From: an uncultured delta proteobacterium
GTDB taxonomy: Bacteria; Desulfobacterota; Syntrophia; Syntrophales; Smithellaceae
DNA: 64,000 nt
Direction of reading: 5' to 3'
NCBI GenBank assembly: GCA_963753975.1
Contig: CAVWEH010000004.1
Location: 1 to 64,000, forward strand
The notes under the pieces are model-generated. The model was not told the DNA's origin, searched no databases, and worked only from the letters and a program-made list of their open reading frames with translations. The first letter of the stretch is position 1. Each line of letters opens with the position of its first letter. This document shows positions 6,985 to 54,075 of the stretch, piece by piece. The translations under genes were made by a program, and so were the position numbers.

Positions 6985-7038
6985 TGTGCTCCTCCAAAAC
7001 GTTTGCGCTGCAATATAATCTTAAATTATTGCAAACAC

Positions 7039-7157
7039 AAGTGGAGGCTTCTCCGGCAGGAGCCGAAGGCTCACTAAAACAACACGACCTCCCGGGTCAC
7101 AGATCTTTCTTCCCCGGTCGGAACCGTAGATTTCAAGTCGCGGGATTAATTATTTCC
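7039..7157. ncRNA. Candidate structured non-coding element, copy A (short form)
   Basis: Three colinear blocks shared with 51092-51325; hairpins GAGCC-GAA-GGCTC and GACC-TCCCG-GGTC. Family not recognised. Confidence 0.5.
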
Positions 7158-7203
7158 CCCATCACTGGAAAATGGCTTTCATTAATCCCCATTCTCCTGG
7201 TTA

Positions 7204-7306
7204 TACCATTTCGATTTCAAAGGATAACGAGGCAGCGAGGAGGAGGCGCCGGAGGCGTATTGTACATACGTTGAAGAAGCCGACGACGATGCCAACAAAG
7301 TTAGCC
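7204..7306. mobile_element. MITE-like structured repeat, family 1, copy 1 (right end missing or diverged)
   Basis: Core GGAGGAGGCG..GAGGCGTATTGTACATACGTTGA.GAAGCCGACGACG.TGC.AACAAAG shared with 17383-17505; same left end TTA|TACCATTT. Confidence 0.75.
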
Positions 7307-7418
7307 AAAGACCGGGGGCGCATCCGGGAAGCGCATCGCAAATAGGTTTTTTTCCTTACCGGTAATTACCGCCTGCAAGGTGGTAAATTACAAACGAATT
7401 GGTATCAATACAATTTCG

Positions 7419-7447: not shown

Positions 7448-7487
7448 CACCGCTATAATATTACATAAAGAGCAGGAGATAACTTTT

Positions 7488-8654
7488 ATGAGAAAATTAT
7501 ATATCCTTTTTACGGCATTATCATTTTTTGCTTTTTTAATTTTCGGCTGTAGCAGTAATGATTCCTCTAAAATCAAAATAGGCCTTATTGCGGAATTGAC
7601 CGGCGATATTCCGGCCGTTGGCGCTTCCTGTAAAAACGCGGCGGAAATGGCTGTTGCCGAAATCAATGAGGCCGGAGGCATCCAGCTTGGAGAAAAAAAA
7701 TATAAAGTCGATTTAATCATTGAAGATAATGCCGGTAAAGCGGATCAAGCTGCGTCATCGGCGCAAAAGCTGATTACACAGAAAAATGTGGTAGCAATAG
7801 TGGGGCCTAATGCCAGCCGTTATGTCTTGCCTGCCGCGGAAATTGCCGAATCGAGCAAAGTTGTCCTCATTACACCATGGTCAACAGCGCCAAAAGCTAC
7901 ACTGGATTCCAAAACCGGTGCGCCAAAAAAATATGTCTTTCGTTCCTGTTTCACTGATCCCTTTCAGGGACGTGTTTTAGCCAAGTTCACTCTGGACAAT
8001 CTTAAATTAAAGAAAGCAGCTGTGCTCTACGATGTTGCTTCGGAATACAATAAAGGCATTGCTGAAATTTTCAAAGAAGTCTACGAGCAAAACGGCGGCA
8101 AAGTAGTTGCTTTTGAAACTTACACCACCAATGATAAGGACTTTTCCTCACAGTTGACAAAAATAAAGAGGGCCGCGCCCCAAATAATATTTCTCCCCAA
8201 CTATTACAGCGAAGTGCCGCTGCAAATCCAGCAGGCCAAGCGTTTAGGCATCAAAGTTCCTTTTATCGGTAGTGATTCGTGGGGCAGCGAGGAATTATTA
8301 AAACTCTGCGGCAATGACTGCAACGGTTTCTATTTCAGCACACACTATGCGGCCGACGCTTCCGCAGAAGTTACTAAAAAATTCATTGAAAGTTATAAAG
8401 CCAAATATGGCAACACGCCCGATGATGTTGCCGCGCTGACTTATGATTCCTTCGGCCTGCTCTGGCAGGCACTGAAAAGCGCAGGCAAAAATGACCGCCA
8501 GGCCGTCCGCGACGCTCTGGCTAAAATCCCAAAATACGAAGGCGTGACCGGAACGATGCAGTTTCAAGAAGCTTCCGGCGATCCAATCAAGAGTGCCGTC
8601 ATTCTGAAGATAAAAGATGGAAAGTTTGTATGGTTTGCCAATGCCAAACCGTAA
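7488..8654 (+). CDS. livK: Branched-chain amino acid ABC transporter substrate-binding lipoprotein
   Basis: Lipobox IFGC, IKIGLIAELTG, YVFRSCFTDPFQG, DFSSQLTKIK; upstream of livHMGF; AGGAG RBS. Confidence 0.92.
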   Translation: MRKLYILFTALSFFAFLIFGCSSNDSSKIKIGLIAELTGDIPAVGASCKNAAEMAVAEINEAGGIQLGEKKYKVDLIIEDNAGKADQAASSAQKLITQKNVVAIVGPNASRYVLPAAEIAESSKVVLITPWSTAPKATLDSKTGAPKKYVFRSCFTDPFQGRVLAKFTLDNLKLKKAAVLYDVASEYNKGIAEIFKEVYEQNGGKVVAFETYTTNDKDFSSQLTKIKRAAPQIIFLPNYYSEVPLQIQQAKRLGIKVPFIGSDSWGSEELLKLCGNDCNGFYFSTHYAADASAEVTKKFIESYKAKYGNTPDDVAALTYDSFGLLWQALKSAGKNDRQAVRDALAKIPKYEGVTGTMQFQEASGDPIKSAVILKIKDGKFVWFANAKP

Positions 8655-51091: not shown

Positions 51092-51325
51092 AAGTGGAGC
51101 CCCCTCCGGTCGCAGATGTCCTTTAGGTTACAGGAGCCGGAAGCTTCCTAAAATAGTGAGACCCAAGCTTCAGAAACAAAGCGCATAACCTAAAGGTCAC
51201 GTCACTGCTGAAGCTTGCAGGTCGAATTATCCCGCAAAGCAGAGGACAGCGCGCCCTCCCGCGGTTCACGGCGCTTTCCTCTCCCTGCCGGAGCAGCGGA
51301 ATTCCAAGTCGCGGAATTGATTTCC
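51092..51325. ncRNA. Candidate structured non-coding element, copy B (long form)
   Basis: Homologous blocks to 7039-7157; stems CAAGCTTCAG/CTGAAGCTTG, AGAGGA/TCCTCT, CTCCGG+CAGG/CCTGCCGGAG. Confidence 0.55.
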
Positions 51326-51388: not shown

Positions 51389-52498
51389 ATGAATAGAAGC
51401 AAAAATGGAAATGTTTTGTCCTTTTTTAAAAATGCCACGGTCAGAGATTGGCAAGACTGGCGTTGGCAATTCAAAAATCGCCTTACAAAAGTGACACAAT
51501 TAGATCATTTAGATCATTTTCCAAGCAAATCACGGCTGCGGATGGAAAAGTTAAACGCCGTAACAGTTGTTTATCCAATGGCCGTAACTCCATATTATTT
51601 ATCACTTATTCAAATTGATGACGAAAACGATCCGGTCCGCGCCCAGTGCTTTCCGGATTTGCGGGAAATTTCTTGTCATAAGGACTATCCGGACGACCCA
51701 CTGGAAGAAGACATCCATATGCCGGTACCCAAACTAATACACCGCTATCCTGATCGCTGCCTTGCCATTGTTACTGAAGTTTGTCTTACTTATTGTCGAC
51801 ATTGCAATCGCAAGCGTTTCTGGTCGCAATCGGCACACCTTAGTTTAAAAACACGCCTAAAAAAAATTATCCCCTACATTTCTGAATCGCGGCAAATCAG
51901 AGAAGTTATTATCTCCGGCGGTGATCCGCTTATTTTTGACGATCAAGCGATAGAAACTTTGCTGGCCTCGCTAAAAGCGATACCGCACATTGAAGTTTTA
52001 CGTATAGGCAGTCGCGCCCCCGTTGTCATGCCTATGCGTATTACCAAAGAATTTTGCCGGATGCTCAAACGCTACCGGCCCTTATGGTTTAACACGCAAT
52101 TTAATCATCCGGCTGAAATCACCCCCGAATCCAAACAAGCCTGCAATATGATCCAAGAATCAGGAATTCCCGTTTCTAACCAGTCCGTTTTACTCCGGGG
52201 CGTAAATGACTCACCGGATGTAATGCGCAACTTACTTTACGGCTTGCAAAAGATAGCAGTTCGTCCTTATTATCTTTTCCATTGTGACCCGGTTAAAGGA
52301 TGCGAACACTTCCATACCGATTTAAAATCAGGAATAACTTTGATGGAAAAAATATGGAGTCAGTGCTCCGGTTTGAGTCTGCCTCAATACGTTCTTGATT
52401 TGCCGGGAAGTACGGGAAAGATGCCCCTTAATACAATGTCCGAAACGATAAAAAAAGACCGGCAAATGCACCAACATTATTTTGACAAGTTTATATAA
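51389..52498 (+). CDS. epmB: KamA-family lysine 2,3-aminomutase (EF-P beta-lysylation, EpmB-like)
   Basis: WQDWRWQ, HRYPDR, CLTYCRHCNR, SGGDPL, NQSVLLRGVND; adjacent to efp and epmA. Confidence 0.88.
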   Translation: MNRSKNGNVLSFFKNATVRDWQDWRWQFKNRLTKVTQLDHLDHFPSKSRLRMEKLNAVTVVYPMAVTPYYLSLIQIDDENDPVRAQCFPDLREISCHKDYPDDPLEEDIHMPVPKLIHRYPDRCLAIVTEVCLTYCRHCNRKRFWSQSAHLSLKTRLKKIIPYISESRQIREVIISGGDPLIFDDQAIETLLASLKAIPHIEVLRIGSRAPVVMPMRITKEFCRMLKRYRPLWFNTQFNHPAEITPESKQACNMIQESGIPVSNQSVLLRGVNDSPDVMRNLLYGLQKIAVRPYYLFHCDPVKGCEHFHTDLKSGITLMEKIWSQCSGLSLPQYVLDLPGSTGKMPLNTMSETIKKDRQMHQHYFDKFI

Positions 52499-52566
52499 AT
52501 AGATTAGTAAGAACGAAAAATTAGTCATACAAAATCATAAAATTTAGGGTATAGGGAGAAAATCTT

Positions 52567-53130
52567 ATGTACACCGCGAGCGATTTAAAAAAAGGATTGC
52601 GGCTGAAAATCGATAACGAGCCATATATTATCACCGAATTCAATTTTGTCAAACCGGGCAAGGGGCAAGCGCTCTACCGCACGAAGCTGAAAAACATGAT
52701 CACCGGAAGCCAGTTCGAAAGATCTTTCCGTTCAGTAGATACCTTCGAATCGGCAGACTTGCGAGAAAAGAAGATGCAATATTTATATAAGGAGGGAGAT
52801 AAATACTGCTTCATGGATAATGAAAATTTCGAGCAAATTTATTTAACGGAAAGTCAAATCGGTGACGCCAAAAACTTTTTAATTGATAATATCGAAGCGG
52901 AAATCTTGCTCTTTGAAGACCGTCCCATCGGCATTAGCCTGCCCAACTTCGTTGATTTAGTGGTTACCGAAGCTGAACCCTGGGCCAAGGGTGATACGGT
53001 ATCCGGCGCCACAAAACCGGTTAAAGTCCAGACCGGATATACGATTCAGGTACCGACCTTCGTTAGCGAAGGAGAAAAAATCCGGATTGACACACGCACG
53101 GGGGAATACCTGACCAGAGTTAAAGGTTAA
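52567..53130 (+). CDS. efp: Elongation factor P
   Basis: VKPGKGQA (modifiable Lys), KGDT, DTRTGEYLTRV. Confidence 0.99.
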   Translation: MYTASDLKKGLRLKIDNEPYIITEFNFVKPGKGQALYRTKLKNMITGSQFERSFRSVDTFESADLREKKMQYLYKEGDKYCFMDNENFEQIYLTESQIGDAKNFLIDNIEAEILLFEDRPIGISLPNFVDLVVTEAEPWAKGDTVSGATKPVKVQTGYTIQVPTFVSEGEKIRIDTRTGEYLTRVKG

Positions 53131-53136
53131 TTTCTT

Positions 53137-54075
53137 TTGACCGAATCATATTCAGATGACAACTTTTTATTGGCACGTAAGTCACAAGCTCTGCACCTGC
53201 GCGCCAGACTAATTCAATGTATCCGTCTTTTTTTTATTGAACATGGATTTTTAGAAGTAGAAACTCCGCTGAGAATCCCATCACCCGCACCGGAAGAACA
53301 TATTGAAGCATTTCCTTCGGGCAATTGGTTTTTACAAACCTCCCCTGAACTTTACATGAAAAGGCTTCTGGCTTCCGGTTTTCCGCTGATTTTTCAAATC
53401 AGCAAATGTTTTCGCGCAGGCGAAAGAGGCAGCCTGCACTTGCCGGAATTCACTATGCTGGAATGGTATGTTGCCGGATTCGATTACTGGCAACTCATGT
53501 CACAATGCGAAGAGATGATCTTTGCGGTGGCGAATAACATGGACATTGCTGGACATTGTTTCTTTCGTAATAAAAAAATAAATTTGATACCGCCTTGGGG
53601 GAAAATTACCGTGCAGGAAGCTTTTGAAAAATACGCGCCGGTTACCCTGGAAGAAGCTCTCGTTGCCGATAAATTTGATGAAACCTTGGTTGATTATATC
53701 GAACCTCGACTGGGTATTAATAGACCTGTATTCCTTTATGACTATCCGGCAAAATTGGCCTCTCTCGCTAAATTAAAGAGAAGTGATCCATCTGTAAGCG
53801 AGCGCTTTGAGCTTTATATCGGCGGCATGGAGATTGCCAACGGTTTTTCCGAATTGAATGATGCCAAAGAACAGCGACAGAGGTTTGAAGAAGCCTTGCG
53901 GCGCCGCGCTAAAAAGAATTGGACGCAATATTCCATGCCGGAAAAATTCTTGAACTCACTAACCAGCTTGCCACCCAGTGCAGGCATTGCCTTAGGCGTT
54001 GACCGTTTGGCCATGATCGTCGCCAACGTTTTACAAATCGACGATATGATCTATTTTACACCGGAGATGCTTTAA
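53137..54075 (+). CDS. epmA: EF-P lysine aminoacylase
   Basis: LQTSPELYMKRLL, HLPEFTMLEWY, ERFELY, GIALGVDRL; no anticodon domain. Confidence 0.95.
   Translation: MTESYSDDNFLLARKSQALHLRARLIQCIRLFFIEHGFLEVETPLRIPSPAPEEHIEAFPSGNWFLQTSPELYMKRLLASGFPLIFQISKCFRAGERGSLHLPEFTMLEWYVAGFDYWQLMSQCEEMIFAVANNMDIAGHCFFRNKKINLIPPWGKITVQEAFEKYAPVTLEEALVADKFDETLVDYIEPRLGINRPVFLYDYPAKLASLAKLKRSDPSVSERFELYIGGMEIANGFSELNDAKEQRQRFEEALRRRAKKNWTQYSMPEKFLNSLTSLPPSAGIALGVDRLAMIVANVLQIDDMIYFTPEML

Follow-up and report, generated by a model that had tools for sequence, protein, structure and literature searches.

A short Smithellaceae repeat as a probable non-autonomous element derived from the ends of a tnpA-only IS200

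Introduction

The closest described systems are IS608 of Helicobacter pylori and the elements known as PATEs. According to the available text of the IS608 reports, four bases located 5′ of each hairpin select the cut site (PMC3201880, PMC5934647; also PMC8266576). This recognition follows a rule in which guide base 1 pairs with site base 2 and guide base 2 pairs with site base 1, and these pairs are extended to base triples by the two bases that follow the hairpin on its 3′ side (PMC3201880, PMC5934647). The PATEs of Haloquadratum walsbyi are described, in the available text of the source, as having palindromes near their ends and neither TIRs, target duplication nor a gene, and their palindromes receive insertions of small repeats such as SMR-A (PMC3119063). 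In Geobacillus stearothermophilus, guide-site covariation has been used to define the ends of insertion sequences (ISs) and of PATEs, as the available part of that report describes (bioRxiv 10.1101/2023.03.14.532601).

The window analysed here is a 64,000-nt stretch of an uncultured member of the family Smithellaceae. The original prediction described within it two diverged copies, A and B, of a structured non-coding element. The two copies belong to a dispersed family with defined boundaries and a defined target, and this family is homologous to the ends of real IS200 elements. We consider it very likely that A and B are copies of an approximately 109-nt non-autonomous IS200/IS605-family element (a PATE), the minus strand of which would be moved by a peel-and-paste reaction with TnpA acting in trans. 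Our literature search, which had partial coverage, returned no description of this element, and the available main text of a study on Smithellaceae genomics (PMC13685792) contains no mention of transposase, MITE or palindrome. The element family is a new sequence member of the known class of PATEs.

Results

Copies A and B are members of a dispersed family

The three blocks shared by copies A and B match at 15/18, 24/33 and 16/18 positions, as first counted. The similarity is far beyond chance, as the family profile matches copy A at E = 1.2e-23 and the halves of copy B at 5e-14 and 6e-5. Copy A is 79% identical to the family consensus. The neighbouring genes confirmed that each copy lies between divergent genes, these being SDR and livK-type binding protein genes for copy A, and a cation-efflux transporter gene and a radical-SAM gene ahead of efp for copy B. 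The reported lack of TIRs and ORFs was likewise confirmed, and an Rfam search (E ≤ 5) agreed with the view that neither copy belongs to a known RNA family, with five weak matches elsewhere and none at gathering score.

Other aspects of the original prediction required revision. Rather than two copies, a profile search of the genome returned 40 matches at E ≤ 0.01, 13 of which covered at least 95 model positions. The copies had been assigned to positions 7039–7157 and 51092–51325, whereas comparison with empty sites places them at 7041–7145 and 51094–51316; the region corresponding to 51246–51320, which is homologous to the 3′ part of copy A, had been overlooked. The proposed closing helix reflects cross-pairing between two similar local hairpins, and the family consensus folds as two separate hairpins. 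The plus strand had been favoured earlier, whereas our working strand is the minus strand. The parts of the two copies are as follows, with related genomes designated by G numbers.

7041–7145, minus strand: copy A, whole element, 105 nt; left end 7145, right end 7041, defined by the empty sites in G013, G011 and G002
7146–7149, minus strand: target TTAA of copy A; host DNA, retained at empty sites
7130–7133, minus strand: left guide AAAT of copy A, from the sequence; fits target TTAA by the IS608 rule as given in the available text (PMC3201880, PMC5934647)
7112–7129, minus strand: left subterminal hairpin of copy A, decayed, loop TCCG; from the sequence and family alignment
7111–7110, minus strand: AA after the left hairpin of copy A; predicted base-triple partners
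7050–7073, minus strand: right guide TGAG (consensus GGAG) and right hairpin with TCCT loop of copy A; from the sequence and family alignment
7041–7044, minus strand: predicted right cleavage site CCAC of copy A, by analogy with the CCAC that ends 91/97 copies
51094–51316, minus strand: complete copy B including its nested inserts, 223 nt; empty in G011, G013, G010 and G002, filled in G005
51317–51320, minus strand: target TCAA of copy B; host DNA, from empty-site comparison
51304–51301, minus strand: left guide GAAT of copy B; from the sequence and covariation
51300–51281, minus strand: left hairpin of copy B; from the sequence
51280–51279, minus strand: AG of copy B, predicted triple partners; from the sequence and covariation
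51156–51245, no strand assigned: unrelated hairpin repeat in the linker of copy B, from the genome's modular repeat family; absent from simple copies, family seen genome-wide
about 51186–51207, no strand assigned: nested module of about 22 nt inside this linker repeat; missing in G005, which has the linker repeat at the same site
51110–51130, minus strand: 21-nt module, one base 3′ of the right-hairpin loop of copy B; absent from the G005 copy at site B
51094–51147, minus strand: right end of copy B, hairpin interrupted by the 21-nt module; guide GAAG 51147–51144, terminal CCAC 51097–51094

Between copy A and the start of the SDR gene, positions 7009–7033 of the window contain a 7-bp inverted repeat with an 11-nt spacer. 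This inverted repeat is possibly an operator; it is partly present in G010 and G005 and not in more distant relatives. Beside copy B, window positions 51389–54075 contain three consecutive genes (radical-SAM, efp and class II synthetase-like), which we take to be the epmB-efp-epmA arrangement.

Orthologous sites in relatives are mostly empty

For site A, nine orthologous regions were fetched and seven were aligned. The site is filled in two of the seven relatives (G010 and G005) and empty in five. Site B is filled in one of 15 relatives (G005) and empty in the other 14. Clean empty alleles that read straight through were present in G013, G011 and G002 at site A, and in G011, G013, G010 and G002 at site B. 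On the minus strand, the element is located directly 3′ of TTAA (copy A) or TCAA (copy B), this tetranucleotide is kept at the empty site, and no target duplication is present at the clean junctions of either copy. Most relatives thus keep intact flanks at these sites and lack the element, which counts against a structured regulatory or catalytic RNA.

All insertions of the element family share a single orientation, 3′ of a T(C/T)AA target. The left flank reads TCAA at 40, TTAA at 27 and TGAA at 6 of 87 sites, and is near background further out. IS608-type elements are expected to favour one replication strand; judged from local GC3 skew in the six-contig assembly, 13/23 copies fit this orientation, which does not demonstrate a bias. 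We also considered that copies might be placed just upstream of promoters, with the target acting as a −35 box. A −10 box at the right spacing accompanied 4/41 TTGA sites versus 8% of intergenic TTGA, and this idea was rejected.

The element has the two-end layout of IS608

We parsed 114 loci, of which 97 were anchored at both ends, and aligned the 89 simple copies. The resulting 109-nt consensus is read on the minus strand. Its left half follows the host target and is composed of 12 nt, the guide GAAT, an 8-bp hairpin with the loop TCCA, and AG. The middle features a part that pairs with the 5′ end and then a T-rich linker, and the right half is composed of the guide GGAG, an 8-bp hairpin with the loop TCCT, GG plus 3 nt, and the terminal CCAC. 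Without inserts, the copies span 105–114 nt and are therefore too short for a transposase gene. CCAC ends 91 of the 97 anchored copies and the next base is T in 92 of them. Palindromes are localised near both termini in the consensus as well as in copies A and B, and TIRs are absent from all three. The pairing of the 5′ end with the middle part is well kept, with 588 of 619 cells being Watson-Crick. In some copies (L134 and L137), a deletion between the two similar hairpins has left a shorter element. This two-end layout is that of the IS608 ends. Earlier readings of the hairpins as attC, K-turn or CsrA-loop structures were dropped once the IS ends were recognised.

The element is spread through the family Smithellaceae

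By inspection, the profile matches in the 2.43-Mb genome correspond to 23 loci of the element family and 15 shorter relics inside another repeat. Relatives of the element were found in 34 of 116 genomes of the family Smithellaceae, with seven candidates scored per genome. A 24-base right-hairpin pattern, allowing at most one mismatch, was found in the element's own genome, in 12 of 77 other family genomes and in 1 of 223 genomes of the order's other families. Near-perfect right hairpins were counted at up to 53 per genome (the maximum, in G076), with 27 in G054, 16 in G072 and 12 in G067; the reversed pattern, used as a control, had no match in any of the genomes listed. Identity to the consensus is 79–93% among the 12 aligned simple copies of the own genome. 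G061 carries three identical copies and one that differs by a single base, at four different sites, which implies recent movement. In viral contigs, two matches to the left-end pattern were found with no element behind either, and the right hairpin gave none.

The 15 relics, which are about 60 nt long, lack the left hairpin and retain an intact right end, lie in the loop of a modular hairpin repeat (for example, C4:357547 and C1:152397) and make up 15 of 16 pattern matches. They seem to have spread as passengers of this repeat. Three loci of the own genome (L126, L127 and L131) form a divergent subfamily with the usual right end and a different left part that consists of one long hairpin. Another copy, L119 (C1:76230-76280), adjoins what appears, as read by eye, to be a selenocysteine tRNA gene.

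Nested and neighbouring repeats

Copy B is longer than copy A because it contains a hairpin repeat of about 90 nt in the linker and a 21-nt module in the right hairpin. The linker repeat is present in G005 at the same site without its nested module of about 22 nt. The 21-nt module was located one base 3′ of the left- or right-hairpin loop in 11 of 18 genomic matches. At site A, this module is present in the G010 and G005 copies and not in the own genome; at site B, it is present in the own genome and not in G005.

A second, unrelated dispersed repeat is located beside copy A at window positions 7201–7311, reaching to about 7407. Many family genomes contain several copies of this repeat, none of the 7 aligned relatives has it at this site, and its look-alikes dominate the contigs of the one soil metatranscriptome. 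At L024 (G011:C1, the orthologue of window positions 7450–7490), a different modular repeat array is found just upstream of the livK-type gene. This array is present in one relative only and thus provides an empty-site pair for that repeat family.

A tnpA-only IS200 family as the probable source of the ends

A Y1 search of the family, with matches in 86 of 116 genomes, led to a multi-copy tnpA-only element in G073 that has the same hairpin tip. We identified nine copies of this parent IS in G073 (L077 and L106–L113). Its relatives comprise 13 loci from genome contigs, the best 80 of 273 from metagenomes (L246–L325) and 4/401 from a sample of the phylum; L139–L143 also belong to this IS family. 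The parent TnpA is a Y1 enzyme of about 142 aa. The three parent proteins that were scanned scored 112–115 bits with the IS200/IS605 TnpA model NF033573 (cut-off 55), and the solved structures nearest to the parent enzyme are IS200/IS608-type transposases.

Among the left ends of 100 parent loci, 58 of 67 distinct sites combine guide AAAA and target TTAT. Its right ends combine GA(A/T)G with TCAC or GA(A/T)A with TCAT, with the loop TCCT in 71/79 and a T after the end in 75/79. In IS608, the fourth guide base pairs with the fourth site base. This pairing is borne out by the parent right ends, since guide base 4 covaries with the last base (G:C 55, A:T 19, G:T 4, C:C 1; n = 79).

When the left and right non-coding DNA of the IS is joined, the element consensus can be aligned with it from one end to the other, with scores of 94, 94, 75 and 72 at the four IS loci tried. 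Alignments of 300 shuffles gave means of 17–23 and maxima of 40–57, all below the real scores. In the order guide, cut site and triple bases, the left end changes from AAAA/TTAT/AT in the parent to GAAT/TCAA/AG in the derivative, and the right end from GAAG/TCAC/AG to GGAG/CCAC/GG. All differences at these positions are mutually compensatory and obey the IS608 pairing rule. In L111, the linker of an element copy contains an inserted parent IS, which follows TTAT and lies on the same strand.

The close subfamily of the parent was found in 1 of 116 family genomes (G073) versus 34 of 116 for the element, and the parent was not found in G061 despite the identical element copies there. The parent copies of G073 look broken, with an in-frame stop in seven of nine and the usual start codon missing in the eight with upstream DNA inspected; the IS is present in multiple copies all the same. 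Among the 100 IS loci, none was a tnpA-bearing element with the derivative's own termini.

Several features of the parent were observed in addition. Among the best 80 of 273 metagenome loci (L246–L325), a −10-like hexamer is located just before the start codon in 68/80, and TG before the hexamer together with a 5–6-nt spacer is present in 65/80. This arrangement suggests that the tnpA mRNA of the parent IS is leaderless. In G073, the loop of the parent left hairpin is inverted in some copies (region of interest in L077, L109 and L110), and the rearranged left end of L077 begins with an inverted right end.

Guide, target and triple bases covary

From 115 loci, 99 left ends were parsed and collapsed to 87 sites, although two of the eight merges may have joined loci that look alike by chance. 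Guide G occurs with target C 39, T 16, G 4 and A 1 times; guide A with T 13 and C 4 times; guide C with G 3, T 4, C 1 and A 1 times; and guide T once. The guide-target association is significant (Fisher p = 0.0013), and the 55 Watson-Crick matches were reached by 0 of 20000 global permutations. This covariation is mostly between genomes, with a within-genome permutation p of 0.055. The triple partner also follows the guide (85 copies): guide G is found with G in 55 and with A/T in 6 copies, and guide A with G in 3 and with A/T in 13 (p = 6e-8; within-genome permutation p = 0.001). The guide-triple geometry is as reported for IS608 in the available text (PMC3201880, PMC5934647). Copy A represents the AAAT/TTAA/AA type of guide, target and triple bases, and copy B the GAAT/TCAA/AG type.

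In a blind mutual-information scan, the top pairs were subfamily signals, the guide-triple pair ranked 25th and the guide was the third-best partner of the target column. The covariation of guide, target and triple bases is partly confounded by subfamily. The informative covariation is that between the guide of the element and host DNA outside the element.

Discussion

The original prediction had offered a relic of an RNA-associated mobile element as one of its readings. The mobile part of this reading is right, but the evidence points to a DNA element, derived from IS200/IS605 and moved as single-stranded DNA, rather than to an RNA-associated one. By analogy with IS608, we infer the enzymatic steps as follows. 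A tnpA-only IS200 would have lost its gene and the left and right ends would have become joined to form the element. A Y1 HUH transposase supplied in trans would bind both hairpins on the single-stranded minus strand. The left cut would occur 3′ of the host TCAA/TTAA, chosen by pairing with the left guide GAAT/AAAT, and the right cut 3′ of the element's own CCAC, chosen by the right guide GGAG. The ends would then be joined into a single-stranded DNA circle that would be pasted 3′ of a new TCAA/TTAA. Because the target would be read by DNA pairing, the element could change it; the shift from TTAT in the parent to TCAA here would have occurred by matched guide changes while using a related enzyme.

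The reading originally favoured, a structured regulatory or catalytic RNA, is not supported, and we regard it as very unlikely that the element is, or has become, a functional cis-regulator or sRNA. There is precedent, as the leader RNA of IS200 is reported, in the available text, to have been domesticated as an sRNA in Salmonella (PMC12594629). By crude ORF calls, a gene points away from the left end at 16/23 copies; the pairing between the 5′ end and the middle part is highly preserved (588/619 cells), and 14/89 copies have TATTAT where the parent has its −10 box. Against this last point, the −10 remnant is degenerate in copy A and interrupted in copy B. Most relatives have the element at neither site, the neighbours of copies A and B share no function and the orientation of neighbouring genes varies across the 23 copies, and neither copy has an Rfam match. 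As plus-strand RNA, neither copy folds clearly better than its shuffles (z = −0.29 for A and −1.30 for B). Compensatory changes in the stems are few, amounting to 18/689 cells of the left stem and 3/710 of the right stem. The G-T versus A-C counts of 53/43 and 42/28 barely favour a strand, showing a slight G-T excess on the minus strand only, and the folding energies of the two strands are alike. Scans for consensus promoters and terminators yielded numbers near the averages for shuffled sequences. Contigs of one soil metatranscriptome (word share 0.06; organism not shown present) cover mainly the neighbouring repeat and only part of copy A, and so do not bear on expression. Still less probable is that the element is a TIR-type MITE or a RAYT-mobilised repeat of the REP/REPIN type. 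The GC-rich palindromes would suit such a repeat, as would the mosaic neighbours that resemble BIMEs and the GTGG at the start of the plus strand, which we take to be a REP-like tag. However, the two hairpins are direct and not inverted and have distinct left and right roles, the 4-nt target is fixed with no duplication and no TIRs, and the homologous enzyme scores 115 bits as IS200 TnpA as opposed to 26 bits with a REP transposase model (cut-off 80). The end-to-end homology with IS200 ends largely refutes the REP or MITE reading.

A different question is which enzyme moves the element. Descent from IS200 ends followed by a switch to another enzyme, such as a longer Y1/RAYT-like protein of the family, an HUH enzyme carried by a phage or plasmid, or some unrecognised protein, is in our view unlikely. 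It would account for the presence of a close parent TnpA in 1/116 family genomes, yet 53, 27, 16 and 12 near-perfect right hairpins in G076, G054, G072 and G067, and for the identical element copies of G061; some Y1_Tnp match is also present in 86/116 genomes, many in frames of 220–360 aa. On the other hand, the ends, the loop, the guide rule and the T after the right end closely match the parent family. The own genome has no Y1 match and decayed copies (79–93% of the consensus), as expected if the enzyme left long ago. Multi-copy ISs are also often lost from metagenome assemblies, which counts against the involvement of another enzyme. The TnpB loci of the family (19 loci in 13/116 genomes) have canonical IS605 ends and none has the ends of the element.

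Returning to the PATE with TnpA in trans, copies A and B are old and decayed, common to one or two sister species and probably inert in this genome. The right guide of copy A is changed and the right hairpin of copy B is interrupted, which is evidence against present activity. Searches of the 95%-complete own assembly for Y1 transposase, TnpB and the parent TnpA gave no matches, and a scan of its 3596 ORFs for the HUH motif plus Tyr found none. The missing Y1 TnpA is compatible with a PATE but bears on present mobility.

We tentatively put forward a broader joint reading, which as a whole is rather doubtful. All three targeting parts would have been rewired from the parent and retargeting would be ongoing (GAAT/TCAA, AAAT/TTAA and possibly CAAT/TGAA), with the element amplifying without a cognate tnpA by means of a visiting or unrecognised enzyme. 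The element would also form the middle tier of a set of nested parasites, in which both the parent IS and the modular hairpin repeat use its linker as a landing pad, and the 21-nt module repeatedly enters and leaves the hairpins and may switch copies off.

These results remove a candidate new RNA and name a high-copy mobile repeat of the family Smithellaceae. Matched natural changes in guide, target and triple bases form a series that lends support to the IS608 DNA-guide code beyond the model elements, and the parent transposase family allows direct tests of natural retargeting and of mobilisation in trans. The element is otherwise of the expected kind.

As far as the available text of the PATE reports describes, the element resembles the PATEs of Haloquadratum walsbyi and Geobacillus stearothermophilus in its lack of TIRs, near-terminal palindromes, lack of target duplication, insufficient length for a gene and fused IS200/IS605 ends. 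Terminal-only versions arising by deletion between similar palindromes (L134 and L137 here) and small repeats in palindromes (SMR-A there, the 21-nt module here) are also shared with those PATEs. It differs in its host group and sequence family, in having a tnpA-only parent where the PATE parents described there are tnpB-bearing, in an insert of 21 nt where SMR-A is about 110 bp with TIRs, and in targeting TCAA/TTAA whereas the parent found here targets TTAT.

Compared with IS608 of Helicobacter pylori, as presented in the available text (PMC3201880, PMC5934647), the element has the same guide tetranucleotide 5′ of each hairpin and would be cut in the same way, on the left just after a host tetranucleotide and on the right just after one of its own. 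The left end of the element (GAAT, TCAA, then AG) has the letters of the IS608 right end, and the left triple bases AT of the parent are those of the IS608 left end. Unlike IS608, the element has neither tnpA nor tnpB, its target-guide spacing is 12 nt, its stems are near-perfect with TCCA/TCCT loops, and no lagging-strand bias was detected among its copies (13/23). With the tnpA-only IS200 parent it shares homologous non-coding ends, the same hairpin tips and the T after the right end. The parent encodes a Y1 TnpA of about 142 aa, targets TTAT and ends in TCAC or TCAT, whereas the element carries no gene, targets TCAA or TTAA and ends in CCAC.
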